A stretch of DNA of 64,000 bases from Prolixibacteraceae bacterium (GTDB lineage: Bacteria; Bacteroidota; Bacteroidia; Bacteroidales; Prolixibacteraceae): assembly GCA_003457135.1 (NCBI GenBank), contig DMSQ01000014.1, positions 10,759 through 74,758 of the forward strand. The letters run 5' to 3'. Within the stretch, counting starts at the first letter, position 1. Every line of letters starts with the position of its first letter. Under the pieces are notes generated by a model, which worked only from the letters and a program-made list of their open reading frames with translations, searched no databases and was not told where the DNA came from. The position numbers and the translations under genes were made by a program. Below, one piece after another: positions 9,849 to 30,080 of this stretch.

Positions 9849-9868
9849 TATTTGCCGATGCAGAAAGT
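9848..9868 (-). repeat. att site: displaced 3' end of mnmE (FCIGK*)
   Basis: TTATTTGCCGATGCAGAAAGT vs TTACTTTCCGATGCAAAAATT at 30060-30080, 17/21 identical, core CCGATGCA. Confidence 0.92.
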
Positions 9869-9903
9869 AATATGTATTGATAATCTGATATTTACAATTT
9901 AAT

Positions 9904-9921
9904 GGTACAAATAAGGTACAA
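9904..9921 (+). repeat. Putative integrase arm-type sites, left end
   Basis: GGTACAA-ATAA-GGTACAA; same motif at 29918-29935. Confidence 0.65.
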
Positions 9922-10493
9922 TGGCCCAATAAATTACATGAATTTCAATTTACTTTCTGTATATTTTCCAAACCGAATTTGTCTCGTAAAAGAACCAAAA
10001 TTACAAATGAGGTTTAAAGGTGTAAAATTCTCAAGGTGTCAAAATTTAGCTTCAAAAGTATTACATACGTTAAACTATTCTTATATTACGTTTGTATTGT
10101 ATTGATAATTAGAATGATACTAACACAATAACATTAAAAACCTGTTGAAATTAACATTAGTAACAATGTGTTACAATGTTATAAAAATAGATGATTGTTT
10201 TTGTAAATAACTATCTGAATATCAGTGTATTATTTCGTGATAAAAATGTTATTTGCGAGTTTTTAAAGTGAGAAATTTAGATAAAAAATTGAGTGAAAAT
10301 GGGTCATATTTAGTGAAAATTGACAACTGAAAAATATTGAATCACAAATTCGCACATGCTTAAAACTGCCTTTTTCCCAAGACTGTCAATGACAAATTAT
10401 TCATCATTGTCATTGAATGCTTCAGATTATTATATCATCTTCTATGAATAAATATTCATTATATTTGCATAAATATTCATTAATTATAATGTC

Positions 10494-10690
10494 ATGGACG
10501 AACACCTATCATTTGAAATTTTAAAAATTGGCGTGGGTATTTACAACAACGCTGTTTCTGGCTGCATTATCAAACACGATCTTCTCACATTAGAAGAAAC
10601 CGTAAAATGTCCTCAGAGGAAATGGACAGGGTGATTCAGGAGCATTACGAGGTTCACGGACAAGTAAATCCGAACAAGAAAATTCTGTAA
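10494..10690 (+). pseudogene. Possible frameshifted small gene
   Basis: 46-aa ORF would extend to about 65 aa with one extra A in an A-run; TATATTTG motif upstream. Confidence 0.3.
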
Positions 10691-10760
10691 TTAAAACACC
10701 CGTAATTCCGTGTATTTGCACGCTCAACAATTTTGGTGAACGTCACAAAATCCATTGCTT

Positions 10761-11035
10761 TCAGTATTTCGTTCGCCAAGACTTTTTAATGTATTTCGGG
10801 TATTTCAATAGAATGCGGTCAATGTCGGATGGGTAGATATCTGTCAGGTTCATTTCGGACATTACCTTCTGAAGCGTGGAAACGATATTCCAAGCTGCTG
10901 GCAAGCTTCGACCTTTGAAAGTGGTGAAATTTTTCTACCTTCATTCTCTGCGATCTCTGCACGAACAATAGCCTTTAGTTCTTCCCTGAACTGTTCGAGT
11001 GTTATTCCCTGTAAAATGATTATTGGTTCATCCAT
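10761..11035 (-). pseudogene. Frameshifted excisionase-like HTH gene
   Basis: MDEPIIILQGITLEQFREELKAIVRAEI...SKVEACQQLGISFPRFRR* (stop 10862-10864) continues in another frame as VMSEMNLTDIYPSDIDRILLKYPK...*. Confidence 0.55.
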
Positions 11036-11150
11036 GATTATTGAATTTGAATTTCAAGTAAACACGAATTTTAGGAAACAAGGTTACAATGGGGTTAGTA
11101 CTACTGAGATCATAGATTCAATGGGTAGAACACAGAAATTTTGCAATCTT

Positions 11151-11516
11151 TTAGTATTGTGACCTCCATAGTTTTTTAATATCGGCCCCAGTATAGAATT
11201 TGCGACCATTAGCCTTTCGAATGCTGCACCTGATTAATCCTTCATTGGAGTATCTATTAAGAGTATTTCTACTAATATTCAGAATTTTACTTGCTTCCCT
11301 AGTTGTAAATCGGCCAGTATCAGAAATTTGTGGTTCATCTGAAATAAATCCAGTAACTTTTTTACTTGATTTTTCAGGTTGAATACTTCCTTGCATTTTT
11401 GCCAACTCCTCTCTGATTGATTCCTTAATGAAAGGCTTTAGCTTAACCAGTAAGGCTTCTGCAAGTTCTTCACAACTGAAACCTTCGGCAATTATATTGG
11501 GATTGTCCATGTACAT
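11151..11516 (-). CDS. Excisionase/MerR-like HTH protein
   Basis: FTTREASKILNISRNTLNRYSNEGLI...RKFYTGADI. Confidence 0.8.
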   Translation of the reverse strand: MYMDNPNIIAEGFSCEELAEALLVKLKPFIKESIREELAKMQGSIQPEKSSKKVTGFISDEPQISDTGRFTTREASKILNISRNTLNRYSNEGLIRCSIRKANGRKFYTGADIKKLWRSQY

Positions 11517-12098
11517 TCATTCTTTAGGTTTTACAAAGCCTATCGGATTCCGGGACTGGATGGGTGATTGATCAATGCTCTTTTGTTTACTGGCAAGTTC
11601 TGAGAGTGCCATGTAAATATCATCGAAAACAACCTGATTATCTTCGCTCAAATCGTTCATGGCTTTAAGATTTTCTTCGCTCTGTTCCTCCAATGCTTTG
11701 ACGTGCAGCCAGAGTTCCTTTATTTCAGCAGAAACAGCCGATTGAGTAAGCAGATAATTTCTGACCGCGACAAAAGCCCTCATAATGTTGATATTTATCT
11801 CAATGGCTTTTTCGCTTCGTAATACACTCGATAGCATGGCAACACCTTGTTCAGTAAATGCAAACGGCGCATAACCTGTTGATAGTGATGTGGAGATCAC
11901 AGATTGTGATCTTAAAAAGGTAACTTCATTTTTGGTTAGTTCAAACATGAAATCTTCGGGAAACCGGTTCATATTACGTCTTACTGCCTGTTTTACTGCC
12001 CGTGTTTCTACCTGATACATTTCTGCAAGGTCGAAGTCCAACATTACACGCTGTCCCCGAATCTCGTATATCTTCTTTTGGATGACTGATAGTTCCAT
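11517..12098 (-). CDS. ORF6N-domain protein (phage antirepressor-like)
   Basis: IYEIRGQRVMLDFDLAEMYQVET, RFPEDFMFELT, PFAFTEQGVAMLSSVL. Confidence 0.9.
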   Translation of the reverse strand: MELSVIQKKIYEIRGQRVMLDFDLAEMYQVETRAVKQAVRRNMNRFPEDFMFELTKNEVTFLRSQSVISTSLSTGYAPFAFTEQGVAMLSSVLRSEKAIEININIMRAFVAVRNYLLTQSAVSAEIKELWLHVKALEEQSEENLKAMNDLSEDNQVVFDDIYMALSELASKQKSIDQSPIQSRNPIGFVKPKE

Positions 12099-12102
12099 AA
12101 AA

Positions 12103-12345
12103 CTATTCTTTTGATACTTTCAATTTTGTACCACAATTCGGGCAAGTAAATTCATTAGTCTTGGCCGGTTCGAATAACTCGGCAATAGGAACGTCCAAAG
12201 CATTGGCAATTTTCTGAAGCGTATCAGTGGTTGTATTACTTCCATTAATGATTCTGCTCAATGCCGGTGCCTGAACATCCATTCTTTTTGCAACATCGGC
12301 AATTGTTAACCTTTTTTCTTTTGCAATTTCTTTTACTCTTAACAC
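12103..12345 (-). CDS. XRE-family HTH regulator with C-terminal CxxC ribbon
   Basis: LTIADVAKRMDVQAPALSRIING, TLQKIANALDV, CPNCG. Confidence 0.85.
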   Translation of the reverse strand: MLRVKEIAKEKRLTIADVAKRMDVQAPALSRIINGSNTTTDTLQKIANALDVPIAELFEPAKTNEFTCPNCGTKLKVSKE

Positions 12346-12463
12346 TTGTGTTATTTTTTTAGTTTTATCAAAAGTACAAAATATTTGTATGTAGGTGCAA
12401 GTATTTCATGTAAAATAACTCATTGGGTTATTTTTTAATGAAATAAATTTGGATTGTATTAAA

Positions 12464-12796
12464 TTATGACTTTGATACTTTGCCTTTGACCTCTTCCAGA
12501 AGCTTTTCAAGATCCTGCACGGACTGGATACGGTAAATTGTACCGTTAAAATCTATGAACCCGGATAGTTCTGATTGGCCCGGGTGTGAATAGTTGAACA
12601 ATTCACCTATCTCAACTTTAAGAGCTTCAGCAATTATCTGCAAAGTTTCAACTTTAGGATTATTGTTTTCGTTCAGGATATTGCTGATTGAATTTCTGGA
12701 TAAACTATGTCCGTTCGCCTCTATCCGGTCTTTCAATATTTCAATGTTGACCTTTCGGTCTGCCATTAACTGTTTCAAATTATCAATCCAATTCAT
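12464..12796 (-). CDS. XRE-family HTH repressor (cI-like position)
   Basis: SRNSISNILN, NPKVETLQIIAEALKV; ATG at 12796, divergent from the small-gene operon. Confidence 0.8.
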   Translation of the reverse strand: MNWIDNLKQLMADRKVNIEILKDRIEANGHSLSRNSISNILNENNNPKVETLQIIAEALKVEIGELFNYSHPGQSELSGFIDFNGTIYRIQSVQDLEKLLEEVKGKVSKS

Positions 12797-12917
12797 AACA
12801 AGTATATTTTTCATCAAATGTAAGAAACTTGAATGTAATAACAAGTATATTTTTCAAATAAATCATTTTATAACAAATATATTTTCTGTTTCATTTGTTT
12901 ATAACAAATATACTTTG
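12795..12917 (+). promoter_or_regulatory. Four operator-like repeats ATAACAARTATAYTTT
   Basis: Copies at 12795, 12838, 12870 and 12901 between divergent genes. Confidence 0.75.
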
Positions 12918-12950
12918 TATCATTACGGAATATTACAAAACAAAGTTGTT

Positions 12951-13271
12951 ATGAAAGCAAAATTAAATTTCAGGTCTGTGGTTTTCAAAAGGGCTTACAT
13001 TTTAGTAAAGCAAACCGGATGCAACTTCTCGTCAGCATTAACTCAGGCATGGAAACGCTACCGGGATTTCAAGGCCAGAACTATTGAGCAACTAACCAAA
13101 CAGATTAACGGTTTTGACTACTATTACCAAATGTGTGACGATGGCAGGGTTTATCGTTACTGGTCGGCAATTCAGAAAGAAATCAGGGAACAAATTCAAA
13201 CTCTTCCGGGCAGCTTCATTTCTGCCATTGCACAGCATTTTAATTCAAATCAAATAAAGTCATTCATTTAA
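12951..13271 (+). CDS. Hypothetical protein (phage/MGE-type)
   Basis: ATG at 12951 (MKAKLNFRSVVFKRAY...ALTQAWKRY); the longer track start overlaps the repressor gene. Confidence 0.7.
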   Translation: MKAKLNFRSVVFKRAYILVKQTGCNFSSALTQAWKRYRDFKARTIEQLTKQINGFDYYYQMCDDGRVYRYWSAIQKEIREQIQTLPGSFISAIAQHFNSNQIKSFI

Positions 13272-13290
13272 TCACTTAAAAATCACAGTT

Positions 13291-13563
13291 ATGGAAAGTA
13301 AAAAATCAACCCCTAAGAAAAACACGGTAACCGTTACAATTCCGTGTTCAAATTCTCATTCAATCCCGGTCTTTGAAGATTTCATGGCTGAAGCTCAAAG
13401 ACGCTTTCAGGTCGAATGTGATGCAAAAAACAAGGCTTATAGCTTTATCCTATCAACTGGACGGCTTCGGGAATTCGAAGAGTTTTGCAAATTAACTCAA
13501 GGACTGAATCATCATGGCAATTGCATTGATCATTTGGCTCTAATTATCCCTAATCAGCAATAG
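13291..13563 (+). CDS. Hypothetical protein
   Basis: 90 aa, AKNKAYSFILS motif, TTAAAA-N9-ATG leader. Confidence 0.7.
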   Translation: MESKKSTPKKNTVTVTIPCSNSHSIPVFEDFMAEAQRRFQVECDAKNKAYSFILSTGRLREFEEFCKLTQGLNHHGNCIDHLALIIPNQQ

Positions 13564-13579
13564 TTTAAAACCCATCATC

Positions 13580-13741
13580 ATGGAAAAGTACAAACAATTA
13601 CTTGCTGGTCAAATTGAATCAATCCTATCGGCTTACAATCCCTACCTTGACAAATTAAATGAAGGTGAAAAAAAGGATTTGGAGGACATAACCAAGTGTC
13701 TTCAAATACTTAAGTCAGACAGTGATTATACAGCTTCTTGA
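13580..13741 (+). CDS. Small hypothetical protein (53 aa), not in the ORF track
   Basis: MEKYKQLLAGQIESILSAYNPYLDKLNEGEKKDLEDITKCLQILKSDSDYTAS; same TTAAAA-N9-ATG leader as neighbours. Confidence 0.6.
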   Translation: MEKYKQLLAGQIESILSAYNPYLDKLNEGEKKDLEDITKCLQILKSDSDYTAS

Positions 13742-13840
13742 TATTCTTTACGAATACTTTCATTACTGACCTTTGGGATAATCTCACAGGTCTGATTATA
13801 TCAAACTCAAATAATATTTATTCATTTAAAACCAATCAAA

Positions 13841-14161
13841 ATGGAAAACACAACTTTTTTAAACCCAAGAATTGAAGGCAACAAACTTATCGTTGACGTT
13901 AAAACTGAATTTTCAGACGGACCTTTAATCAAACACATGACCCTACAACTTTCTCCTTTGTATGAAATGATAGTTGAAGCAGAAACAAGCAGGTTCGCCA
14001 ACGCGGCTAGCGGACTAATTTTTGCTTATACCAGACTTGCCTCTTTCGCCCTTAACAGTGATAGTGAATTTATAAAGAAAGAATTACTTGGAGCCGACGA
14101 TGGCGATCTTTACTATTTGAATATGTTATCTCAATTGCTTAGGCGCATGGATGTACTGTAA
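13841..14161 (+). CDS. Hypothetical protein
   Basis: 106 aa, TTAAAA-N9-ATG leader, followed by a terminator-like hairpin. Confidence 0.7.
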   Translation: MENTTFLNPRIEGNKLIVDVKTEFSDGPLIKHMTLQLSPLYEMIVEAETSRFANAASGLIFAYTRLASFALNSDSEFIKKELLGADDGDLYYLNMLSQLLRRMDVL

Positions 14162-14407: not shown

Positions 14408-17400
14408 CTACTTCCCAAAATATTTGTACTTGCTTACAAACCCTCTGCGTAATCCTAAGATTTGAAGATCGATTACTTTATTTTCATCTTCGTCCGTTGT
14501 CGTCTTTTTCAAGTCCAAAAGCGATTTTATTTCATCATTTGTCATCTCGAAATCAATCAAAAAATCCCTTTGATTTTCTGATATTTCAGGGATTCTATTT
14601 GGATCATTGGCTTGATTTCGTCTATCATCTTCAAACTTCAATTCCTCTGCCTTGTTTGCAACCTCCCTGTATTCGTCATACATGAACCCGGTGTACTTCT
14701 TGTGGTAATATGTTTGAAGGATCGGAATACTTGTTGGGTCAAATCCTTCAATTTTATGTTCCCTGTCCTTTATCTGTTTGTCGAGATCATCAACGGTTTT
14801 CAGAATCATGTAATTGGCAGCATCTAAAACGGTCTGGCCTGGGCCACCGGTGTATGACTTCAGAATATATTCTATTTTAGCAGGATTCCAGTCGTATTTT
14901 TCAAGGATACGTTTGCCTATTATCGTTTTTGTCCCAAGTTCCGGATCACCACCGCCCTGTTTGTACAACCAATTAGTGAATGAAACGATCATCGCATTGG
15001 TATTATTGAAGTGCATCTGGCTGTCAGCAAATTTCCCCTGTTGACTTTTAAGAAATGGTTCCCGGAATATTGGTCTCTTTCTGTAGTCCTCGTTAGTCGA
15101 AATATCCATCAATGGCTTAATTGCGCTGAATAAAGAACCTGCAACCTTTGGGGCAGATAGTTTACCTTGCTTATTGAATATTCCACTAATTTCAACAGGA
15201 GATAATGCCTGAGTGAAAACTTCTGCCATATCGAAAGACATTTGTTCCGTGGATATCCTGCCGGTGTGATGTTCATACATTGCAACACCAAGCGCATTCC
15301 AAACTCGGTATCCCTGAGCTAATGGGATACTCACATAGTTATCCTTCCATCCAATGACAGTATTGTTGTACATGGTGTACTTGTTGATTTCGGCATAATC
15401 CTTATCATCATCGTCACCATTTAATAAATCCCATAGATACCTAGATAATAAGCCCTGGATTACAAGAGAAACAGCATTTATAGCAAAGTACCGGAAAGTA
15501 TGGTTCTTTGCTAAATCGTATTGTTTTGCGGCTCCTTGAATGGAAGCATTGAAGAACATGATGAACGATCCGATTGTGGCAGAATATTCACCCCTTGTAT
15601 CGAAGTTTGTAGTTATTTCCTTTGCTTCGTTGATTGACATGATAATAGATTCACCTCTTTCTCTTGCCATGGCATAAGCTGTAAACCTGGCAATACTTTC
15701 ACCGTATCCGGCCAATCCTTCCATTAACCTTAAAGCATTTAAAGGATTTGCAAGTCTGGCAAGACTGCTTGATCCACTTCTTTTGATGTGTCTAATATAT
15801 CTTTCAACCTTTGATTTTACTTCATCAAGTGGCATCAAATAAGCTTGTCCGGTTGGTCCACCATTCAGGTTATACTCATCGTATAATTTTTTCCACTTCT
15901 TTTCTTTCTCTGTCTTTGGCTCAACACCCATAAAATCAAGTAATTTATCACCTGTTTTGCTTGAATTGCGCCAAGCATCATTCAGCATGTTTGAAGCGAG
16001 AAAACGGGCTGCAACCGTGTATTTAGCCTGAAATTTCAGACTGTCTTTGAATCCCCTTTGAATAAACATTGTTTTTGCGCCAGTCTTGAAGTCACGATAT
16101 GTATTTGAGGTTATAAATGATGGCCTCCATGATGTGACACTCCTTGACATGAAGCGCGTAATGCTTGCAATCGGAAGGTACTTAAAGTTGATTGACTGAG
16201 AATAATTGTCACCGTTTATTGCGTTTGAAATAGCAGGGTCTTTAAAAATCATCTTAAATCGATTTCCATCCACATAAACATCAACCTCATGTTGTTTTCG
16301 CAAGTATGTTGGTTTTTCGCTCATTGGGTTCGATATTCTTGACGAAGAAAATGTATATCCGCTTCCTTCCAAAACACTCTTAAAACCAAGCTCGGTTTTC
16401 TTCGTATTACCTTCCTCGTCGGTGTTCATCAGGAATACTTTATGGTCAGGCTTATCGTTACCCTTTTGATCCTTAAAAGTGCCTGAAGTTTCATAAACCA
16501 CTTCCGTTACCATGCCCAACTTATCGGTCATGTAATTCATCTGGGACATCTCGAACAAGTCTTTCCTGTTACTGTTCAGCTTGATCAAATTGTAAGCTGA
16601 CCTCTTGGCCCTATTCTTTTCTCCCCACATTATCGCGGATGTTGCCATTTGATAAATGTATGCAATAGGATCATCTGCCATACTTTCACGGCCTTCTGTT
16701 TTTTCATCCCCGGAAAACTCGCTTCGTTTTTCTGATTTTTCGTAGTCAAGCTGTATTTCTTCAGCTATTGGCTCAAATCCTCTCAATGGAACGTAGTATT
16801 TCCAATTTCTTGCTACTACTGCATTAAGAGAATCCTGAGTGTACTTGCCGTATTCCACCCAATAACGGGCAATTTTTCCGGTGCATTCGCGTGTATTTGT
16901 CCAAAGTTCATCAATCAACTCCCGTGGAATTTCGCTTTCGAATTTTTCATAGATTGCTATTGCCTGGTCGTCAGTCATTCCGGAGAAGTTATTTCCCTTT
17001 TTACCCAGAGAACGGAACCACCTATTACGTTCTGGGGCATGTCTGGCGATCATGTATTCTTGGACTTTTTTATAGGCTTCTTCGTTTTTTAAATCTTTCT
17101 TTTCCAGTATGGCCATGACATTCTCTACCGATCTAAGCATTGGATTGAATAGCTTCTTTTCAAAATGAGTTTTCTGTCCCATCTGTCTGGAACTTTTCTG
17201 ATTCACAGCAAGGAAGACGTTCGCGTAATCCGGAACTTTTAAATCAAATTTTTCAAGTAGTATTTTGATGGCAGTATTGCCATTAATGAAGCGAGAAACA
17301 AAGCGGTCTGTTTTAGTTCTTACTTTCTGGGGCATTCTTTTTTGTTTGACACGGACAGATGCTGCTTTAAGAAGAGAAGATAACGGCTCTTGACCTTTCT

Positions 17401-20400
17401 TGAAGTTAACACGAGAATCCGTGCTATCTAATTCTTGATTCGATTCAGGAGTGTTTATTCTTGAATCTTCTTCGTTGGCTGAATTGGTTCCGTTCCTATC
17501 CAAAACCCGTCCTGATCTGTCTTTAGCCTGTATCCGTCCATCGGTCTGATCCTGATATTCTCTTCCATCATTAGGATTTCCTTCGCTTCCATCAATGTTA
17601 CGTTGTTCTCCTTTGCGTAGGCTTCCGATTCCTCTCTGACTACTACTGGAATGCTCATTTTTTTGAAAATTAGATTGAACAGAAACACGAATAATTTCAA
17701 TAAGTTGCCCTTCAGTTAAAAGACTCCCGTTAAAGTTATACAATTTTGAAAGTAGAGCTCGAAGATATTTAATCGTTTCATTCCAAATAGATTTTACTTC
17801 TGGGTTTAAATCTTCTCTGGAAACGATCTTCTCAGACAAATTCGCCAGCAATTCTTCGCCTCTTACCTGCTTTGTACTTCCGGCATACTCTCTGTTAACC
17901 CAATCGAATAGTTCCTTAATTTCCGGCTTAATTTCGGCAATTTTTCTGAAGCTGTCATAAACCTGAACCATAAGTAAATTTCGCTCATTTGTCGGCAAAA
18001 TGTTTCTCAATCCGTTATGAACCCCATTTTCATGTATCCATATTGCAATAAGGTGGTCAATTGATTTTATCTTATCGGCCATGACGTAAACTTTGTCATT
18101 ATACCAAACGCCATAAATACCAAGTGAAAATAAACTGTGATTTCTTATACCTGCCGGGAGTTCATCCACTGATTGAACAAGAATAACTGGTGCCGCACTT
18201 GGCGCAATAGATTGAAGTTCATCAATCTTGGATTGCATTTCTTCAACCGTAGGAGTTATCCTAAATCTGTTGAACGAAAATTCATTGCTTGTTTGATCAT
18301 TTTGTAAACTATTTGTATTTTCAAAAAGCGCATCGAATGGATTATCAGTATAAAGAATTTTTTGATACGCTTCAACCTCTCCAATACCCATCTGTCCGTT
18401 CAGTGCTTTTGATACAATTTCACCGGGTATTAGTTCAGATAACTGTAGATCGGATTGGTCAAGTTCTGTCTTTCCTGTGATTAGCTGATAGGCTTTCTGT
18501 TTATCGGTTAATTGAGGAATTGAGGTGTCCACATTCTCGACCGGACTGTCCATGGTCTTTTGTACAGGTTGTTGTTTAGGAACAATCTTGATGCTCCTTA
18601 CTTCAGTCTTAAAGGTAGGTTTCTTGTATTTGTTTTCAGCCGGTATTTCAACCTGAACACGTTCGGCCACAACTTCAAAGTCCGAGTTGTCCTTAAATTC
18701 TTTTTCAAGTGCTGGTAATGCTTTTTCAAGTGATACACGTTCGTTCGGGACCACTTCGTCAAACCCTTCATTTTCGATAATGTCAATAACAGTACTGCCA
18801 AATTTCTGAGGGGTGATTTGGCGCTCAACCGGCCCAGTCGAATTCTGGTCATTTTGTGTCAATCCATTATCCCCGCTCGGTGTCGTTGTAACAGATTCGT
18901 TATTTTGTGGCTGATTTTGTATTGAATTTATAATTTTTTCTTTTTCCCATCTTTGAACTTCTTCAATAGGAACCCATACAGCATTCTCGTTTTCATCAAG
19001 CCATGCCTCCTGTTTTCCATCATCTGATAATCCTTCACCGTTTGGTATCCTGATAAGTGTCTTACCATTAAACACCATTTTGTTTTCGTTTGATTGCTCC
19101 TGGTTAACGGCTTCGGTCTGGTCAAATGAAGCAAGCCCGGCCTGAACATATTCGTCTTTGGTCGTTTCCTGTTTCTCAACAACCATTTCAGGGCTGACCA
19201 TCTTGGTTAGTTTACCATCTTCAAAAGGCTGTTTATCCAATCTTCTGACCATTACAGCCCCGGAAATATCCCCTTGTTCGCCTGAAACAATATAAACAGG
19301 CGTATTTTCTTCAGTTCCTAAAGTAGTTAGTTTGCCTACTACAATGGTTCCGGTTGTTTGGTGTGCCAGTTCGTTGGCTTCAGTAGTTATTTCGGATTCT
19401 TTAGATTGTCGCGGATTGAGTTTATTTACACCCATAACCGCTAATGCTCCACCTGAGCCAAACGCCCCACCGCCCATTCCGTAAACAAATGATTTTGCAG
19501 CGTCTTTTGTTGGTTCAAAAACAGTATTTGCGCCAGTAAAATAGTCAATTGTATTTGTGGCTAGGCTATTGGCATATTCTTCAATTCCTTCGGCTACCGG
19601 GCCAATAATAAGGCCGAAACGATCAAACATTTTAGTAGTCCATGCAGAAATTCCTTTTTGAAGAACTTCTTTTGCTACCTTTTCGCCAGATTTAGCCACC
19701 AATCGTCCAATATATTTTCCCATCGGAACAGAACCAAGTAATTCTGTGGCCGCTTCAGATGTTCCAGAAAGTGCCGAATTGGTAAGTTTCTGAAATTCGC
19801 CCATGTTTTTCTGAGCAATAAAATCAGCCTTTTGTTTTTCTGTAAATATTTGAGGTAATTCTGGATTGTCAAGCTGTTCGTATTTTCCGGCTGCTGAAGT
19901 TGCCCCAATTGCACCAAGCCCGGCTGCTCCTCCGCCCATTGCCATTATCATGTATGGTAAACTCTTTGCGCCCTGAAGGAATATGTCACCCGCAACGGCT
20001 CCATACTCACCTTTCTTCCATAGGTCCGTAAAATCTTCGCCATTATATCGGTCTGACTTCGCTTCAAGCTTCTTTGCTTCTTCTTTGGCTGATACTTTTA
20101 GTTCTTCAGCTGCGCTTGTGGCTGGATTAGTTTGAAGGAATGAATCAACAAATACTTTTCTTTCTTCATCACCAATTCCTAATTCCTTTGTTTTATAATT
20201 CAGGTATGAACGCATTGGAAGATTTTGTAACGCCCCAACGTTTCCGGCTATGTCAACTGAAGTTCCGGCAAATCCCTGCATTGCATCACCAAGCCAAGTA
20301 CTCCAAAATCCTGAATCTTCTTTTGTTTTTGGTTGCTCGGTAGTTGTATTTTGTGCAACAACCTGATTTTTTTCTTCCGTATAATTTTCAGGGAATTTCT

Positions 20401-20616: not shown

Positions 20617-21807
20617 TTAAAATCCTCCCTTTGGAACGCCTTTTAAATTGTATGGATTCTCTTGAAAAAATGACGGTACTTTTTTTGAATAATCAACTTT
20701 CTGTGTCACATGATTTTCTTCTAATTGATTATTATGGAACAATCCAAGAGGATCGGGTTTTGTTGCGTTTGGTGCTGATTTTTGTTCGTTTTGTTTGAGA
20801 ACTTCAGGAGATGGGGTTGTTGAATTTTCTTCCATCTCAATATCTGCCCGTACCAAATCATCGTCTTTTATGTCTGGACTAAGTGATGTAACGAATTGAC
20901 CCGGAATAGGCTTGTTGTACTTATTGAGCTTAGGCGTATCGATGAACATATTTTTAAACCGGGTCTTCAATAGTTCGCTATTCTTTAATGCCCTTTCCCT
21001 TCTGAATGAATATTCGGCAGGTGAAATATTGTGAGTGGCGTTTTTTGTTTGAATTATCTTTGGACGATCTGCTTTGTTTTCCGATCCTGTTTTGTTTGCC
21101 CTGATCAATGCTGCTTTGCCAAGAGTTTTTTTGTATTCTTCGTCAATATCCTGTTGTTTTTGCTTAATCTTAAACTCAGCTTGCCATTTAGCCAAGTCTT
21201 GTGCATTCTTAACCTTTCTGAAGGCTTCGTTTGCTGCCTGCACCCGGTTCCGGTATTCACGTTCTGTTTCTTTGTCCAATCGTGCTATCCCAAACTGAAT
21301 GTCACTTAACTTTCTTTGGTAATCCCGGTATTTGAAGGCTTTATTTTCCTGATCGTGTTTGTCGAGAACATTTTCATAAGACTGATAGAGTGCCGGTGAA
21401 ATCTGGTCCGGTGCTTTTCTTCTCACATTTGCGCCAAGTCCAAGAGAAAGTGCATCGCCAAGAATACCAACGCCACGCCCAAACTGATTAATCCTGCCCA
21501 TGCGCCTCAAACGGTCAATTTTATCCTGATCAATCTTTGGTGCTTCTTCCCGGGTAGACAAAAACCTTTTCATGATTTTTTCTTCCGGTGAAAGTTTTCG
21601 TTCTGATACCATTGCTGAATTAACCGGATTGATAGGTGCTTCTGATTCCTGTAACCTCTGGTCAGTAGGATCAACCTGATAGTTTGACTGAACTTGCTGA
21701 GCAGGTCTTGATGGGATAAACAGTTCTTTCCCGTCCTCCGGGCTGTCGAATCTTCTTTGAGGATAATCAATTAGGTAATCTTCTGTTTGGAATTCGGGTG
21801 TTGGCAT
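20617..21807 (-). CDS. Putative ejection/pilot-like protein (396 aa)
   Basis: Coiled-coil-like, amphipathic GVGILGDALSLGLG segment; stop 2 nt before the large gene. Confidence 0.5.
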   Translation of the reverse strand: MPTPEFQTEDYLIDYPQRRFDSPEDGKELFIPSRPAQQVQSNYQVDPTDQRLQESEAPINPVNSAMVSERKLSPEEKIMKRFLSTREEAPKIDQDKIDRLRRMGRINQFGRGVGILGDALSLGLGANVRRKAPDQISPALYQSYENVLDKHDQENKAFKYRDYQRKLSDIQFGIARLDKETEREYRNRVQAANEAFRKVKNAQDLAKWQAEFKIKQKQQDIDEEYKKTLGKAALIRANKTGSENKADRPKIIQTKNATHNISPAEYSFRRERALKNSELLKTRFKNMFIDTPKLNKYNKPIPGQFVTSLSPDIKDDDLVRADIEMEENSTTPSPEVLKQNEQKSAPNATKPDPLGLFHNNQLEENHVTQKVDYSKKVPSFFQENPYNLKGVPKGGF

Positions 21808-23018: not shown

Positions 23019-23073
23019 AATGAATGTTTTAATTTTGATTGTTTTTTAAAATGTATAGATTATCCTTCTCTGT

Positions 23074-23676
23074 TCAATCGTTTTCTGTTCCATATTCAAA
23101 TAGTGTTCTTAAATAGATTTTATCTTCAATCTCAACCAGCTTATTTGAAGCCTGTGTAAAAGCTCGTAATATCCACATCGGCTTGAAACTAAAGAACCTA
23201 TTTCCTGCTTTTGAAACGGAATCAATACACTCAAGCAGTTCTTTTTTAGAGATCATTTCCAAATAATGTTGTTGAATCGCAATTCCGCAATAAAGAATGT
23301 AATTCATATTACACTTGAGCATGGAAGCCTCCCAGCCAGTATTCACGTACCATTTGCAAAAACTTTCGAGTATCCGTTTGTCCGTTGACCAGTTTTGTAG
23401 TACCAATTTGTACACGTTGTATTCTTCAATGGACTTATTTGAAGTGTCCTCAATCGAGTTCATAAATTCAAAAGGCGTTGTTTCAGCTTGGAATAAAAAG
23501 TTAATAAAGTCTGACGTTTTTTGGGCTTCCGGCAGTGTTGTTTTTTTTGCACAATGGCTGCTGATAATTGCATGATCAAGACTGTGGGCGGCTATCAAGG
23601 CCTGAAAGGTTTTTATTTTTGCATGGTTTTTTCGGATTTGAACAAGTTCTTTTTGAAGTTGTTTAATTTCGTTCAT
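23074..23676 (-). CDS. Hypothetical protein, paralog A
   Basis: Paralog of 22434-23018; TTAAAA-N9-ATG leader. Confidence 0.8.
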   Translation of the reverse strand: MNEIKQLQKELVQIRKNHAKIKTFQALIAAHSLDHAIISSHCAKKTTLPEAQKTSDFINFLFQAETTPFEFMNSIEDTSNKSIEEYNVYKLVLQNWSTDKRILESFCKWYVNTGWEASMLKCNMNYILYCGIAIQQHYLEMISKKELLECIDSVSKAGNRFFSFKPMWILRAFTQASNKLVEIEDKIYLRTLFEYGTEND

Positions 23677-23717: not shown

Positions 23718-25109
23718 TTAGAATGGATCCTTACCTGTCGGTTCGATGCGATGGTCGGGGGAATAATGGTTGATATCGCTTATTGGATTATCACTGAATC
23801 CTGTCATTTCTTCATTGGCGAATATTTCAAAGTCGCCACAAGTTCCCCTCCGGTTCTTTGCGATGGAAATATAGAACCGGTTATCTGTATCGTTTCTCCA
23901 TGGGAATATCACTATGTCAGCATCCTGCTCGATGGCTCCCGATTCCCGAAGGTGGTGCAACTGTGGTTTTTCTCCGGCTGCTGCCCGGTTGAGCTGCGAA
24001 AGGCAAATGATAGGTATGTTTTCAGCAAGTGCGATTTCCTTTAGAGTTCGGCTGATTTCGGAAATTTGCTGTTCTCTGATCGCTTTCTTGTCAATAGGCT
24101 TAACAAGCTGCAAATAGTCTAAAATAATTAAATCGCACCGTCCGGCCTTTCTGTTCCTGATCGTATTGGACTTTATGCGGGATGAGGTCAACCCAGCATA
24201 GTCATTCCAGATTATAGGCAACCGTTCAAAATTGATCAGTGAAGCGTTTATTGCGTTCCAATCCTTATCGTTTATGTAGCCGTCCCTCAGCCGGGTCCTG
24301 TTTATGGAAGATTCGCCACTAATCATTATTCTCATCAGGTCGGATGACTTCATTTCAAGGCCGTAAAAATTAACCCAGCTTCCGGCTCTGGCTGCCATCT
24401 TTGCAAAGTGAAGTGCAAGGCTTGTTTTTCCAATTCCGGGGCGTGCAGCGACAATAACTAGGTTTGTGCTGCGCCATCCTCCTGTGGCATTGTTCAGGGT
24501 TTTAAGTCCTGTTGTGATACCGGGTTGTTTTCCATTTTTAGCCTGAACACAATCTTTCTCAATCTCTTTGATGGTTTCCCGGATTACGTTGAAATGCGAT
24601 TGGCCAGTGTTTGCTCCTAGAGTTGAATCCTCAATTGCTGATATTTTTTGTTTTACTGAGATTAATAGATCTTCAATGTCTGTTCCTTCTTCATAAGCCT
24701 CACTAATTGTTTCTGAGCCTATCCTGATCAATTCTCTTTGTGCATAAAGTTGCGCTATGATACGGGCGTGAGCTTCGATATGTGCGGCCGATGCAACTTT
24801 GCTTGTTAGCTGGGTAATGTAAAGCGGTCCTCCTATCGTTTCCAGTTGGTTTGTAGTAATCAACGCCCTGGTTACAGTAAGTAAATCAATCTGTCTATTT
24901 GCATCTGCCAGCGATTTTACGACATCAAATATTATCTGATGCTCATATTTGTAAAAGCTATTAGAGGTTAAAACTCCACTTACTTTATGTATTGCTTCAG
25001 CTTCTAACATTAAGGATCCTAAAACGGCCTCTTCCATATCTATGGCTTGGGGTGGAATTTTACCATATTGAGCATTAATTTCATCTATTTGGTTTTTCAT
25101 CTTGTCCAT
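23718..25109 (-). CDS. dnaB: Replicative DNA helicase (element-encoded)
   Basis: PPQAIDMEEAVLG, Walker A AARPGIGKT, DYLQL, LSQLNR, LRESGAIEQDAD. Confidence 0.95.
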   Translation of the reverse strand: MDKMKNQIDEINAQYGKIPPQAIDMEEAVLGSLMLEAEAIHKVSGVLTSNSFYKYEHQIIFDVVKSLADANRQIDLLTVTRALITTNQLETIGGPLYITQLTSKVASAAHIEAHARIIAQLYAQRELIRIGSETISEAYEEGTDIEDLLISVKQKISAIEDSTLGANTGQSHFNVIRETIKEIEKDCVQAKNGKQPGITTGLKTLNNATGGWRSTNLVIVAARPGIGKTSLALHFAKMAARAGSWVNFYGLEMKSSDLMRIMISGESSINRTRLRDGYINDKDWNAINASLINFERLPIIWNDYAGLTSSRIKSNTIRNRKAGRCDLIILDYLQLVKPIDKKAIREQQISEISRTLKEIALAENIPIICLSQLNRAAAGEKPQLHHLRESGAIEQDADIVIFPWRNDTDNRFYISIAKNRRGTCGDFEIFANEEMTGFSDNPISDINHYSPDHRIEPTGKDPF

Positions 25110-25783
25110 TCTTTGGGTGTTTTGATTTCAATTTTTGTTTTTGGGTTGCCACCTGTATTGCTTCGGGCTATCCATCCGGTAACAGATTTCTTCCAATTTG
25201 CCATTTTGTTTTTACCCACCATCCAGTTTATTGATCCGTAATGAGCATCAAATTTTACAGCTTCTGTTTCTGGGTTCAGGGTTAAACCTTTTTCTTTGAT
25301 ACTTTCTGAAAAATATGATTGAATTTCTAAGAGAGAAGGAGGGGTAAAACGATCAGTTTTCACCTCTCTTTTATTATTCTCATTATTCTCATTATTTAAT
25401 TGGTGTCGTTTGCGTTTCACTTCCGTTTCATTTGCGTTTCGGTCATTCTGGTAACTGTCATAATTACAGACCTTTATCCGTGTCGTTTTTTGTTCGGGTT
25501 TTAGTACAATCATTGAACACGCTTCTAGGAGCTTAAAGAACCTTCTGACCTTCGATTTATTCCAGTTAAAAATCTTTGCCCATGTATCCAAACTGTAAAG
25601 TTTTTCTCCTCTGTTACAGCATAAAACTGCATTTCCAATATTGACCGTTTCATCCTGATGGTTAACTTCCATGAGAATAGTTAACCATGCTTCAAATTTT
25701 GTGAAAGGGCGACCTTTAGGAAATATCCAATGTTTTCTGATTGCACGATAAACAGAGATCCAGCCTTCGTTAATATCATTCAT
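25097..25783 (-). CDS. Phage-type replication initiator (replisome-organiser/lambda-O-like)
   Basis: GWISVYRAI...EAWLTIL...RGEKLYSLDTWAKIFNWNKSKVRRFF winged helix; C-terminal FTPPSL...NWKKSVTGW; overlaps the dnaB start; ATG at 25783. Confidence 0.8.
   Translation of the reverse strand: MNDINEGWISVYRAIRKHWIFPKGRPFTKFEAWLTILMEVNHQDETVNIGNAVLCCNRGEKLYSLDTWAKIFNWNKSKVRRFFKLLEACSMIVLKPEQKTTRIKVCNYDSYQNDRNANETEVKRKRHQLNNENNENNKREVKTDRFTPPSLLEIQSYFSESIKEKGLTLNPETEAVKFDAHYGSINWMVGKNKMANWKKSVTGWIARSNTGGNPKTKIEIKTPKEWTR
25371..25440. repeat. Putative origin inside rep: three 11-bp iterons plus AT-rich tract
   Basis: GTTTGCGTTTC / ACTTCCGTTTC / ATTTGCGTTTC (25408-25440) next to TTATTATTCTCATTATTCTCATTATTTAATT (25371-25401). 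Confidence 0.65.
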
Positions 25784-25982
25784 TGGACTTGTTTTTAAAG
25801 CGATTACACTGATCCAGAGTTCCGGAATAAACCCGAAACCATATTGAAGTTCGGGAAGTGCTGAACCCAAGGGAAACAATTTTATATTCCTTGAACAAGG
25901 GATTAAATAAGACCTTATGGGTGGCAGAAGTTCTGAAAATACGGTTCAAATAGTTTCCTGATGGTTTTGTGGCTGTCAGCAT
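25776..25982 (-). CDS. Small hypothetical protein
   Basis: 68 aa, overlaps both neighbours by 7-8 nt, filling the operon gap. Confidence 0.5.
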   Translation of the reverse strand: MLTATKPSGNYLNRIFRTSATHKVLFNPLFKEYKIVSLGFSTSRTSIWFRVYSGTLDQCNRFKNKSNE

Positions 25983-26476
25983 GGATTACCCTCCTGAAAC
26001 TTTAGATTGTAGAATTTTAAGAACTGCTCGAATGATGTGACAGTGACGGAGATTAGTCCGGCTTCTTCAGTGACTTGTGCGTGGCTTTGAAGATCCCTGC
26101 TGATCCTTATACGAACAGTAATTTCGCCAATGATCGTAGAAATATCAAACATTTCATTGATTCCGTTTTTAATCCAATGGGTTTCAATGATACTCCGCTG
26201 GTGTCCTATTACATTAGTGAATATTGTTTTAGTGGTAATCCTTCGGTTTATTTGTTCGGCCTTGTATCCAGACAATTTGAGAAAGTCAGTTATTGCTTTC
26301 ATCAGCCCGGAAGTTGTATCGTCCCGGTATTCGTCTTTAGCAAGGAAGCGGATAGGAGTGTTTGGTAATCTGATTTTCTTTGCTTCAAATGCCAAGGATT
26401 CAAGATACTTGACAGCATCAGGCTTGACGTATCTCGGCTTTCTTCCCTTTGCTTTTAATTCGGCTGTCTGGTTCAT
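25976..26476 (-). CDS. VRR-NUC/PD-(D/E)xK-like protein, apparently degenerate
   Basis: GLMKAITDFLKLSGYKAEQIN, WIK, DISTII, RDLQSHAQ, SFEQFLKFY; no ExK motif. Confidence 0.5.
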   Translation of the reverse strand: MNQTAELKAKGRKPRYVKPDAVKYLESLAFEAKKIRLPNTPIRFLAKDEYRDDTTSGLMKAITDFLKLSGYKAEQINRRITTKTIFTNVIGHQRSIIETHWIKNGINEMFDISTIIGEITVRIRISRDLQSHAQVTEEAGLISVTVTSFEQFLKFYNLKFQEGNPC

Positions 26477-26805
26477 AGTGAAAGGGATTTAGTTGGTGAG
26501 TCAAACAGACTTAACTGAGCATGTCTTTTAGGAGCTTTTTGGGGATCGGTACTTAAGTACCAAGCCTTGAATCCTGTTTTCTGGCAATCCCTCTTTTCAA
26601 TTTCCCAAAGCATTTCCGCTTTTTCAAGATCGCGCTTGTAACGTGTTATGCATTTCTGGGGTACACCGGTAGCATCAGTCACCATTGAAGCTGTAGCAAC
26701 ATGTTCTTTCAGATAGTGAAATATGGTTTGCAGTTGATTTAAGTGTGTTGTATCTTTGTCAAGTTCTAATTGCAAAGATTTTCTGGAGGTAGTATGTAGG
26801 CACAT
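26473..26805 (-). CDS. Winged-helix-like hypothetical protein
   Basis: TASMVTDATGVPQKCITRYKRDLEK; ATGA overlap with the downstream gene. Confidence 0.65.
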   Translation of the reverse strand: MCLHTTSRKSLQLELDKDTTHLNQLQTIFHYLKEHVATASMVTDATGVPQKCITRYKRDLEKAEMLWEIEKRDCQKTGFKAWYLSTDPQKAPKRHAQLSLFDSPTKSLSL

Positions 26806-26806
26806 A

Positions 26807-27148
26807 TTACCTCCGTTTTTTATTTTCCAAAAATTGATCCGCCTCTACGGCTGTTTCCAAAAAGGTTTTGCGTCGCCCGGACTTCAACCAAAAATCAATT
26901 TCCGATTTTAAGAATGTAATTTTCTTTCCCCTTTTATGGAAAGGGATAGCTCTTTCATGCACATAACCGTAAAAAGTCGCCTTGCTTCTTTTTTCAGGAT
27001 CGTACTCAACTAATTCATTAAGATCAAACCAACAGTCGGGTAGGGGTTGGTTGTTGTTACTCTTTTCAAGTAACAGCCGTTCCATATTTTCCAGCTTCTG
27101 ATAAATCTGGTGAACGGATGCGGGTAAATTTTCGAATGTAACTGTCAT
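26807..27148 (-). CDS. Excisionase-like HTH protein (Bacteroidetes MGE type)
   Basis: WFDLNEL...KATFYGYVHERAIPFHKRGKKITFLKSEIDFWL. Confidence 0.85.
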   Translation of the reverse strand: MTVTFENLPASVHQIYQKLENMERLLLEKSNNNQPLPDCWFDLNELVEYDPEKRSKATFYGYVHERAIPFHKRGKKITFLKSEIDFWLKSGRRKTFLETAVEADQFLENKKRR

Positions 27149-27254
27149 TGCATCATTATTTAAGTGAATAATGATGCAATGATATTGGGTTGTTATGGTG
27201 CTATTCTTTTGAAGGCAAAGAGGACAAAAAGAAAGGCAAAGCAGGCAAAAAATA

Positions 27255-28199
27255 CTACCATTTGTTTATTGTTTTGCCCGGTTTAAAGAAAGATGGAATA
27301 GATTTTTCACCCCAGTTATCGAAGCATTCTGTAAATAGTTTAATAAACCTTCTCTTATTCTGTATGTGGCCATAGTGAGCCACAGCAATATCAAAAAGTT
27401 CGTAAAATCGTTTTATCACAAATCCCTTTTCACCGTTAGAACAGTTTATTTTTTGTTTCGGTTGGGTTGTATCATTCAAAAATCCTTTTCTTAGAAATGA
27501 AATTAGCTGTTTGGTAGTCAAAAATTCATTTCCATTTTTGCTTTTTTTGGTGGTCATTACCGTAAAGTGTGATATTACTTTATCCATTGGAAGACCTTTC
27601 CAGAAAAGATTCTCAGAACTCCTTATTTTGTCCAGTTCTAATTTCAGTTCTTCACTTTTGGATTGCTCTTTTTCAGGTAGCGAAGGTTGTTCTGGCAGAT
27701 CACTTGATTCCTGAGTCTGTGGCTGTTTGACATACTCTTTTTTGATAAATTCAAAATATGACTCCGTAAATTGACGTATCAATTCACAGTCATTATTAGT
27801 AAGATAAGGATAAATCTTCTTTGAGTACGCTACTCTTGCATTTTCTTCTTCGATATGCTGTCTGTAATATTCAGCTTTTAAATCTCGCTTAAATGCTCCC
27901 GGTAATTTTTCCTCCTTATTTATAAAGTCCGCCAGGCAAAGCTCATAAAACCCCTTGTACATTTCCGTTTCAGATTTTCCCCAGTTATGAATAAGATAGG
28001 CCGTAAATCCAAGAACCATCACCGGACAATTTTCTTCATTTCGCTCAGATGGATTTATAATATAAGCAGGTTCATCAGGTGTAAGTTCAATTAACTGATA
28101 CCATACCTGCGTTGCGTTATATTTAAATTCTGCAACCTTTTTATTCATCCAACTACTTGATGTTGCTTCAGTCTTAACTTTCGGTATTAATGACTCCAT
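27255..28199 (-). CDS. Hypothetical protein between integrase and excisionase
   Basis: 314-aa intact ORF, two domains joined by a Pro/Ser/Glu linker. Confidence 0.7.
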   Translation of the reverse strand: MESLIPKVKTEATSSSWMNKKVAEFKYNATQVWYQLIELTPDEPAYIINPSERNEENCPVMVLGFTAYLIHNWGKSETEMYKGFYELCLADFINKEEKLPGAFKRDLKAEYYRQHIEEENARVAYSKKIYPYLTNNDCELIRQFTESYFEFIKKEYVKQPQTQESSDLPEQPSLPEKEQSKSEELKLELDKIRSSENLFWKGLPMDKVISHFTVMTTKKSKNGNEFLTTKQLISFLRKGFLNDTTQPKQKINCSNGEKGFVIKRFYELFDIAVAHYGHIQNKRRFIKLFTECFDNWGEKSIPSFFKPGKTINKW

Positions 28200-28211
28200 A
28201 CTTATTTAGTT

Positions 28212-29450
28212 TTAAAAGTCCAGTTTAATTCTATCCGCAGCATCCCGTTTGGTTTGGCTGATGATCTTAGCGTAAATCTGAGTGGTTTTCAAGTCACGGT
28301 GACCTAACATCTTTGAAACGGTATAAATATCAGTGCCATTACTTAACTGCAAGGTGGCGTATGTATGCCGGAAGCAATGAAAAGTAATATCCTTCGTTAT
28401 TCCGGCTGCACCAATCCATTTAGCCAGGTCTTTGTTTGAGTACGCTGAATAATTCAATCCATCAAATACTTTATCGGTGGGTGCTTTGCGTTCACCAAGC
28501 AGACTGTATGCCTGTTCTGATATGGGCATCATCTCCTCATCATCAGTCTTCTGTTGCCTAAACTGTATAAAATATCCATTGCCTTCAATGTATTCCAATT
28601 CAGACCATACTAGTTTTGAAATATCGGAGAACCGGAGCCCGGTCATGGCTGAAAATATTGCAGCGTTTTTGAGAACGGAATTTTTACATTCAGTCTTGAC
28701 AAGGCTGTTCATTTCTTCGATAGTCAGGAAGCTTCTTCTGGTTTCCGATACTTTAATCGGATCAATGCTATTATTCAAGTCATACTGCAAGTATTTGTCT
28801 TTATAAGCCTGTTTTAATGCAGCTTTAAACTTTAGAAAATATGATCCTGCGGTATTCTGTGAAAGAGTTGTTTTATCACTTCTCTTGCTTTTTGCTGATA
28901 GCAGATAATCTTTGAAATCGTTGCATAAGGTCTCGTTCAAGTCTTCAAATTTCAATTTTCCATTGGTAAATGCTTCAAGATATTGGTAAGCTGACAACCA
29001 GTTTGAACGGTTTGAATCTATACGCTTGTCGGCCAGCTTTTTGAAATATTCAATGAAGTTCTTTTCACCCTGTTGTTTAATTTTCAACTGTTGTTTCTCA
29101 TAGCCAGAGTATATTTCCGGTTTGTTAATCTCACTTTCCTTTTTCTGCCTGATCTGCTCAGCACGTTGTAGTGTCACTTCGTTGTGTTGCTTTTCAGTAG
29201 GGTCAAGCTTTGCTTTTTTAGGATTGCCCTTCTTGTCCAGTACTGGAATAAATCGTTTTTGCTCTTTACCATTTATATCATCATACTTCTGTTCCTCAAT
29301 TTCTGTATCACTGAAAACATAAGTATTCAGAAACTCCCTCCGTGTGATTTTCCCTGTTTTGGGATCAATTATAGCAGGGTAGAAGTCCAGATACAAGGTT
29401 TGCCTTTTACCTGAAATAGGTTTCATTCGAAGTGATACTTTTATTGCCAT
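28212..29450 (-). CDS. Tyrosine site-specific integrase
   Basis: TGLRFSD (R), FHCFRHT (HxxR), LGH, TTQIYA (Y); adjacent to att. Confidence 0.95.
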   Translation of the reverse strand: MAIKVSLRMKPISGKRQTLYLDFYPAIIDPKTGKITRREFLNTYVFSDTEIEEQKYDDINGKEQKRFIPVLDKKGNPKKAKLDPTEKQHNEVTLQRAEQIRQKKESEINKPEIYSGYEKQQLKIKQQGEKNFIEYFKKLADKRIDSNRSNWLSAYQYLEAFTNGKLKFEDLNETLCNDFKDYLLSAKSKRSDKTTLSQNTAGSYFLKFKAALKQAYKDKYLQYDLNNSIDPIKVSETRRSFLTIEEMNSLVKTECKNSVLKNAAIFSAMTGLRFSDISKLVWSELEYIEGNGYFIQFRQQKTDDEEMMPISEQAYSLLGERKAPTDKVFDGLNYSAYSNKDLAKWIGAAGITKDITFHCFRHTYATLQLSNGTDIYTVSKMLGHRDLKTTQIYAKIISQTKRDAADRIKLDF

Positions 29451-29456
29451 TGTGTT

Positions 29457-29813
29457 TTATGTTTTAATGAATAGTCTGTCAATATCTGACCGCTGAATAA
29501 TGATACGCTTTCCGGCCTTACCTGCATTGAGTTCTCCACGATCCATCATTCTATAAACTGTTCGCCTGCTTATTCCTAAAAGTGTACAAGTTTCAACAAT
29601 ACTTAAAAATGGCTTGGTTTTGAGTTCTTCAATCGGCTTGTTTCTGATTTGCTGAACTTCACGGTTGCTTGATTCAACTTTTGCGTTCTTGACAGTTTCC
29701 TTGTAAGCCTTATTGTTGCACGTATGGGAACAGTAGCGTGTTTTCGTTGTTCTGGCAGTAAATTCATTACCGCAATATTCACAAAATCTTTGTACCTCAA
29801 TAGTTGTACTCAT
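29457..29813 (-). CDS. Cys-rich plus HTH excisionase-like protein
   Basis: CEYC...YCSHTC then LSIVETCTLLGISRRTVYRMM HTH; 6 nt upstream of int. Confidence 0.8.
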   Translation of the reverse strand: MSTTIEVQRFCEYCGNEFTARTTKTRYCSHTCNNKAYKETVKNAKVESSNREVQQIRNKPIEELKTKPFLSIVETCTLLGISRRTVYRMMDRGELNAGKAGKRIIIQRSDIDRLFIKT

Positions 29814-29834
29814 GTTTGTAGCTTATTATGCCTT

Positions 29835-29870
29835 TGTGTGTCATTAAGTGTCTATGTGTGCCATTAAGTG
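29835..29870 (+). repeat. Direct repeat TGTGTGYCATTAAGTG x2 upstream of the xis-int operon
   Basis: 29835-29850 and 29855-29870, 15/16 identical. Confidence 0.7.
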
Positions 29871-29899
29871 CATTTAAAAAAGGGAAAAACCCTTTAAAT

Positions 29900-29935
29900 T
29901 TGTACCTCTTAGTCAGAGGTACAACAAAGGTACAA
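29900..29935. repeat. Putative integrase arm-type sites, right end
   Basis: TTGTACC (29900-29906, inverted) and GGTACAA-CAAA-GGTACAA (29918-29935). Confidence 0.65.
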
Positions 29936-30059
29936 ATATTTACGAAACAAACACATAACAAACCAAAACAAATAAAAGCTTTACAGCATAAAAAAAGCCT
30001 TATAATCAAGGCTTTTAAAGGGTTTACACTATGTTTTGTATTTGATTGTTTTGTGGTAG

Positions 30060-30080
30060 TTACTTTCCGATGCAAAAATT
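30060..30080 (-). repeat. att site reconstituting the mnmE 3' end
   Basis: Matches 9848-9868; differences in the FCIGK codons are synonymous. Confidence 0.92.

Follow-up and report, generated by a model that had tools for sequence, protein, structure and literature searches.

A satellite-like integrative element of Prolixibacteraceae with a phage-derived LPD38 gene pair and no recognisable capsid, tail, packaging or conjugation genes

Known phage satellites mostly manipulate capsid size or packaging. To our knowledge, none has been experimentally characterised in Bacteroidota, and a literature search found none. The closest precedent for the element treated here is EcCIMP1, a phage-inducible chromosomal island (PICI) of 19,963 bp for which the P22-like podophage Kapi1 acts as helper in E. 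coli MP1 (Pick, Stadel & Raivio, ISME J 2025, PMC11773190). Its products EcCIMP1_017-019 were likened by the authors to phage 'DNA transfer proteins' (PMC11773190). Here we analyse an integrated element of 20,231 nt (~20.2 kb) located in the 3' end of mnmE, at positions 9848-30078 of a 64,000-nt stretch of a Prolixibacteraceae bacterium genome (assembly GCA_003457135.1, contig DMSQ01000014.1, positions 10,759 to 74,758, forward strand). This whole stretch is called the window, and coordinates given without a contig name refer to it.

Both EcCIMP1 and the element are integrase-regulator islands of ~20 kb without capsid genes; the island of EcCIMP1 has a primase. EcCIMP1 is mobilised by a short-tailed phage, with helper and transfer shown experimentally; for the window's element both are predictions. 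EcCIMP1 is, moreover, a proteobacterial, AlpA-regulated PICI that has separate P22-type genes and no giant protein with an LPD38 domain, and no sequence relationship between the two was found. The original prediction for this stretch, which knew of no described satellite with these genes, goes too far in view of the DNA-transfer-protein-like genes of EcCIMP1 (PMC11773190); the element represents a new variant within an established category.

Polyvalent proteins, as defined by Iyer, Burroughs, Anand, de Souza & Aravind 2017 (PMC5512222), share with the largest protein of the element (the giant) the LPD38 domain and a predicted delivery together with DNA, and an LPD14-like N-terminal module is found in relatives. 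The several unrelated enzymatic domains in one chain that are typical of them are absent from the giant, in which LPD38 alone was detected and no catalytic domain. It is thus polyvalent by name alone, and its carrier here is neither a phage nor a conjugative element.

Judged from its gene content, the element appears to be integrative, self-replicating and phage-derived, to belong to a small family in Prolixibacteraceae-like Bacteroidota, and to be organised like a phage satellite. It is best read as leading a satellite-like, helper-dependent life, a reading in which we have moderate confidence; helper dependence, packaging and an effect on entry or host range are what we infer. PICIs, Staphylococcus aureus pathogenicity islands (SaPIs) and P4-like satellites likewise have an integrase, a repressor switch and their own replicon, lack virion genes, and are similar in size, at about a third of the presumed helper genome. 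The element differs from them in its Bacteroidota host and in its cassette for virion-internal proteins, and no terS, ppi, cpm, sid or psu analogue is recognised in it.

The cassette consists of two genes:
20617..21807, minus strand: p396, the 396-aa partner protein, whose single Gly-rich amphipathic segment precedes a charged coiled coil
14408..20614, minus strand: giant LPD38 protein, 2068 aa (Pfam LPD38 1.7e-18; phrog_14770 6.8e-81)

Together they make up 36.6% of the element ((1191+6207)/20231), in agreement with the share of about 36% estimated originally. The giant consists of an N-terminal module (~100-420) with Gly/Ala-rich amphipathic segments, a variable middle, an HExxxH region (859-866, with the invariant HExxxH at 861-866) and a conserved C-terminal module (1071-2068). 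As in other LPD38-type proteins, the LPD38 match (residues 1737-1948) lies inside a conserved C-terminal module of ~950 aa, and residues 1114-2046 align to the C-terminus of phrog_14770. The whole 2068-aa chain holds 1 cysteine. No enzyme domain was found in it, the N-terminal and middle pieces being without a Pfam match even at E 5.

Scanned in full with HMMER, the last 1000 residues matched 5587 cluster representatives. In all 150 hits listed the module is C-terminal, in proteins ranging from <300 to >6000 aa, the shortest of which are probably fragments. An AlphaFold2 (AF2) model of residues 788-1987 has a predicted local distance difference test score (pLDDT) of 66. The C-terminal model has no PDB fold match with E <0.5 and matches 74 BFVD models, of which those named are phage or viral proteins.

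By its homologies, the pair derives from the virion module of a phage. A gene of ~360-390 aa, the giant and, directly downstream, the portal follow each other in this order in three podophage-type genomes of 45-66 kb: gp2 (393 aa), gp3 (5391 aa) and portal in Bacteroides phage BS-TP4; 382 aa, 4094 aa and portal (phrog_156) in the IMG/VR contig L025; and 358 aa, 3715 aa and P22_portal in the 65.8-kb JGI contig L034. p396 is homologous to the 358-aa gene of L034 (tblastn E 1.6e-6) and to the partner genes of BS-TP4 and L025 (hhalign E 3.6e-5). The G+C content of the 25-kb stretch fetched from L034 is 37.6%, like that of the element. What had been described as a pair of virion-interior-like genes is therefore homologous and syntenic to the portal-adjacent pair of these genomes.

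The podophage LPD38 giants (phi24B gp47, BS-TP4 gp3, PHROGs 14770 and 616) have in common with the element's giant the C-terminal module of ~950 aa, the HExxxH and the ~360-390-aa partner gene upstream. Their genes, however, belong to a full virion module, next to the portal, and as a rule encode enzyme domains (InPase, ART, LPD1, methylase), while that of the element lies in a capsid-less setting and has no recognisable effector domain. The presence of an LPD38 giant in virions is known for phi24B gp47 (2811 aa) alone, which was detected by proteomics, does not appear in the cryo-electron microscopy map, and was proposed to be an encapsidated ejection protein (preprint 10.64898/2026.04.10.717836). 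No PDB sequence or fold match to the T7/P22-type ejection proteins (gp14-16; gp7/16/20) was found.

No remainder of the virion module is recognisable. The original prediction had listed capsid, portal, terminase, tail, lysin and relaxase or type IV secretion system (T4SS) genes as absent, and this held up: four hidden Markov model libraries (Pfam, including relaxed E, PHROGs, NCBIfam and PADLOC), PDB sequences and a pair of AF2 models revealed in the element neither genes for a capsid, portal, terminase, tail or lysis nor those for a relaxase or T4SS, an absence bounded by the sensitivity of homology and fold methods. Coupling proteins and Tra proteins are likewise absent among the element's proteins in Pfam and NCBIfam, and PADLOC, NCBIfam and Rfam gave no match in the element. 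The only open reading frames (ORFs) >400 aa are DnaB, the integrase and the giant, so that none of the others could be a portal or a large terminase. Since capsid, tail, packaging and conjugation genes are all lacking, spread inside the particles of a helper phage is most likely.

This architecture is not restricted to the window. Seven proteins are 56-78% identical to the giant. In a Prolixibacteraceae metagenome-assembled genome (MAG), the element L004/L030, 20.7 kb, lies between exact 43-bp repeats of the tRNA-Pro 3' end, and its integrase shares just 22% identity with that of the window's element. L006/L007 stands beside tRNA-Arg, and L008/L033 is a 27.2-kb contig with element genes only, in which a primase-helicase replaces DnaB; the family also includes L009 and L032. 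At least five elements, the window's included, have this reduced gene set in common, at no fewer than three integration sites and with differing integrase and replication modules, and all large ORFs are intact. Independent copies thus exist, among them those at the tRNA-Pro and tRNA-Arg sites, and no head-tail module fills the corresponding slot in the relatives: their called genes in the fetched stretches, those of L032 included, gave no match to a head, tail or packaging family (precomputed Pfam lists, and scans of unannotated ones). The refuting conditions set out in the original prediction are thus not borne out.

Homologues of p396, of the C-terminal 1290 aa of the giant, of a 144-aa protein (p144) and of a MerR/HTH_17 protein are present in 4/4 relatives compared (L004, L006, L008, L009), and of an 89-aa gene in three of them, the other small genes being patchier. 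In these four relatives the integrase-replication block is inverted relative to the cassette, which means that the family is mosaic and that its members are not copies of one insertion.

The C-terminal 1000 aa of the giant are under strong purifying selection. The ratio of nonsynonymous to synonymous substitution rates (dN/dS) of the C-terminal module is 0.07-0.10 (vs L004, L006 and L032; dS 0.22-1.5), and that of the N-terminal part 0.24-0.49. The giant is itself a mosaic, with residues 788-2068 88-96% identical to L004/L006 and residues 1-787 only 37-44%. A further protein, P0008 (2006 aa), has the N-terminal module only (63% identity) and another C-terminus. It follows that the two modules recombine independently. 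The giant of L008 (10001-20032), 3343 aa, carries InPase and LPD1 domains, neither of which Pfam finds in the window's giant, so that the cargo is exchangeable within a capsid-less element. In L032, an extra 938-aa gene (8884-11700) downstream of the giant has homology to phrog_32516 and to BS-TP4 gp26, which is annotated as a 'putative structural protein'.

The boundaries of the element are defined by a duplicated end of mnmE:
30060..30078, minus strand: att junction at the mnmE end; restores the mnmE stop region (FCIGK*); mnmE ORF 30060-31454
9848..9866, minus strand: second att copy, mnmE 3' remnant; the remnant 9848-9873 reads ITFCIGK* and overlaps the ATG of a 157-aa host gene
29790..29935, no strand assigned: arm-type GGTACAA repeats beside the integrase; pair 29918+/29929+ spaced 11 bp, inverted copies 29900- and 29790-
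9904..9921, plus strand: arm-type GGTACAA pair at the far end; copies at 9904/9915, spaced 11 bp

The 19-nt pattern TTAYTTKCCGATGCARAAA occurs at 9848-9866 and 30060-30078 and nowhere else in a scan of the 64-kb window (2 copies against 0.01 expected; 0/100 shuffles gave 2). Both copies code for FCIGK*, the C-terminus of MnmE, and the mnmE genes of the same genus have the same ending. The exact core common to the two is TGCATCGG only, flanked by partial matches. The two att sites and the arm-type repeats proposed earlier are both borne out, the latter as paired GGTACAA just inside each end, and the satellite trait of an integrase combined with att sites at a defined place in the chromosome is therefore present. 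The arm-repeat region on the integrase side also contains a 20-bp tandem repeat (29825-29871). The left flank is host DNA, with a dnaE2/imuB/lexA-like cassette and a nitroreductase, and so is the right flank. The far end (9874-10860) is ~1 kb without a conserved ORF, with AT-rich repeats and a 21-bp tandem repeat (10435-10480); a pac/cos or regulatory site could lie there. A second full-length mnmE exists in the same genome (G000:C65:9015-10410; L022 2516-3910), its 3' third having 79% nt identity to the window's, which suggests either a co-binned related strain (contamination estimate 4%) or a true duplicate.

From the mnmE end, the minus strand encodes in order an HTH_17/zinc-ribbon protein, the integrase, p314, HTH_17, p110, p166, a DnaD-like protein, DnaB, p200, p194, p144, p396 and the giant. 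Beyond the giant follow four small plus-strand genes, a divergent Cro/CI-type helix-turn-helix (HTH) pair, ORF6N, MerR/HTH_17 and the 89-aa HTH-like gene. The genes and sites for integration, regulation and replication are:
29457..29813, minus strand: zinc-ribbon and HTH_17 protein, 118 aa, excisionase/AlpA-like (HTH_17 2e-13)
28212..29450, minus strand: intact tyrosine integrase, 412 aa (Phage_integrase and SAM_5; 52% identity to the L008/L033 integrase)
26807..27148, minus strand: HTH_17 DNA-binding protein, 113 aa (profile match)
25097..25879, minus strand: DnaD-like replication initiator/helicase loader (phrog_2514, 8e-26)
25373-25440: candidate iterons, short tandem repeats inside the initiator gene; weak, with an 11-mer repeated 2.5 times and a 9-mer 2.7 times
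23718..25109, minus strand: DnaB replicative helicase, 463 aa (2.5e-66)
12948..14161, plus strand: four small conserved genes, 107, 90, 53 and 106 aa, divergent from the repressor gene
12792..12916, no strand assigned: candidate operators, three 19-nt repeats (TTTATAACAAATATATTTT) in and beside the divergent intergenic region
12103..12844, minus strand: two Cro/CI-type HTH regulators, 126 aa and 80 aa (profile match)
11517..12098, minus strand: ORF6N (KilA-N/Rha-like), candidate antirepressor or sensor (81-83% identity in L004, L006)
11151..11516, minus strand: MerR/HTH_17 DNA-binding protein, 121 aa (profile match)
10760..11035, minus strand: conserved HTH-like gene, 89 aa, frameshifted near codon 52; intact in L004, L006 and L008

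An own replication module and a repressor switch, which are further satellite traits, are present by homology alone. The intact integrase of the original prediction is confirmed, its repressor switch corresponds to the HTH regulators and the three operator-like repeats, and of its replicon the phage-type initiator and DnaB stand by homology, whereas the iterons are weak. The first 52 residues of the 89-aa gene are 62-87% identical in L004, L006 and L008; its frameshift is either a true defect or a MAG assembly error.

The other proteins are without assigned function:
27255..28199, minus strand: conserved protein p314, 314 aa, beside the integrase; helical C-terminal domain frequent in Bacteroidota
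25976..26805, minus strand: backbone proteins p110 and p166 (110 and 166 aa); paralogues in other islands of the same genome
21980..23676, minus strand: p200, p194 and p144 (200, 194 and 144 aa); p144 homologues in all 4 relatives compared

The AF2 model of p314 (pLDDT 73, C-terminal domain >90, helical) has no PDB fold match with E <0.5 and no capsid or relaxase fold. p200 and p194 (22434-23676) are tandem paralogues, 43% identical, with a single homologue in L008 and without a family, defence or structure match, and neither they nor p144 are similar to genes upstream of the phage cassette. Another island of the same genome (G000:C90:196017-205762) matches the backbone, with an integrase, a 269-aa protein, HTH_17, p110-like and p166-like proteins and then a 448-aa gene; a 427-aa protein of that island is weakly similar to giant residues 1217-1362 (E 2.7e-4).

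In the life cycle that we propose, a helper podophage of a related lineage would infect the cell or be induced, after which the element would be de-repressed, excised and replicated, and its DNA packaged in capsids made by the helper. With 20 kb, it is about one third of the size of the 60-66-kb related phages that are the presumed helper type. The 396-aa protein and the giant would be loaded into these capsids by means of the conserved C-terminal module, beside the helper's own giant or replacing it, and upon infection they would exit with the DNA and aid its crossing of the envelope. The window's giant, without a recognisable enzyme domain, looks like a bare delivery vehicle and not an effector carrier. 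A more specific version, which we put forward as tentative and rather doubtful, is that a Bacteroidota satellite family takes the whole shell from a helper of the P22-portal type and swaps in its own internal payload. The conserved N- and C-terminal modules of the giant would then be a capsid-loading and ejection vehicle, bare as here or with effectors (InPase/LPD1 in L008), and control of DNA entry and early anti-defence would lie with the satellite instead of the helper.

Several observations weigh against helper dependence. A helper podovirus prophage had been suggested as a check, and none was found in the own genome (92% complete), which has no TerL (PF03237, PF03354), no P22-type portal and no homologues of the BS-TP4 structural proteins. 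No packaging-hijack function (terS, ppi, cos/pac, capsid-size redirection) is recognised among the 144- to 314-aa proteins; one could be hidden among the element's unassigned proteins. A joined-flank search recovered no empty attB in same-genus genomes, because the left-flank gene is not beside mnmE in relatives (separate contigs or far apart). The conserved 89-aa gene is broken in the window's copy, the nearest phage-borne giant is just 35-40% identical in the C-terminal module, and the 27.2-kb L008 contig has no terminal overlap in a circularity test. The family is also rare in databases: scans with the giant alone for close relatives in genome and viral contigs gave no match, and alignment-based scans gave distant IMG/VR matches only, one short JGI fragment and none in GTDB representative genomes. 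In G100, a genome of the same family with a distant LPD38 protein, the context is uninformative.

Of the alternatives, the one that survives best, although we judge it unlikely, is an interference or defence island. Here, the cassette would poison the assembly or entry of related podophages, with a truncated giant being co-assembled or the conduit being blocked, and transfer would be secondary. The absence of an effector domain from a giant that is the shortest form of its family would fit this. Satellites often interfere with their helpers, and EcCIMP1 confers superinfection immunity against its own helper (PMC11773190). On the other hand, the element has no PADLOC match, and its integration, replication and switch modules point to a mobile life cycle. 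An interference role is compatible with the satellite model.

There is only a small chance that the element is a defective prophage remnant, i.e. the immobile relic of a podophage from which an internal deletion removed the genes for morphogenesis and lysis. The clearly phage-derived cassette, the frameshifted 89-aa gene and the failure to find either a helper or an empty site speak for it. However, the recurrence of the same reduced set in at least five elements at three or more sites, with differing integrase and replication modules and intact large ORFs, is not expected of a relic, and neither is the dN/dS of 0.07-0.10 in the giant's C-terminal module at dS up to 1.5. Structural-gene fragments were found in no copy, and the relatives have the same intact reduced set in common, only the 89-aa gene being broken here. 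Since the reduced gene set is conserved, mobile-looking and under selection, random prophage decay is disfavoured.

Improbable as well is an integrative mobilisable element, moved by the T4SS of a conjugative element, with the giant transferred along with the DNA like the conjugative type of polyvalent proteins. Bacteroidota are rich in integrative mobilisable elements, and the backbone of integrase, one further protein, HTH_17, p110 and p166 recurs in other islands of the same genome. About 40% of polyvalent proteins are on conjugative elements (PMC5512222). Yet Pfam and NCBIfam revealed neither a relaxase nor a coupling protein or Tra gene, the portal adjoins the gene in every phage homologue examined, and all structural matches are viral. 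The phage-only relatives of the cassette and the lack of a relaxase thus disfavour conjugative mobilisation.

An autonomous virus or transfer agent of an unfamiliar type, with a particle made from the unannotated 314-, 200-, 194-, 166- and 144-aa proteins or with vesicles, is very improbable: ~1500 aa of conserved proteins without known function would be available for it, but all ORFs >400 aa are already assigned, so that a portal or large terminase lacks a candidate, the helical p314 has no capsid-like fold match, and the cassette derives from tailed phages, which require a portal.

The window's giant is the shortest natural form of its family, which makes it convenient for finding the role of the conserved C-terminal module, for which there is no PDB structural match. 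If the family is helper-dependent, as the satellite-like reading has it, then satellites would also bring along capsid-internal proteins that open the way for DNA. The idea raised by EcCIMP1 would thereby reach a distant phylum and the LPD38 proteins, a very large family with 5587 cluster representatives.

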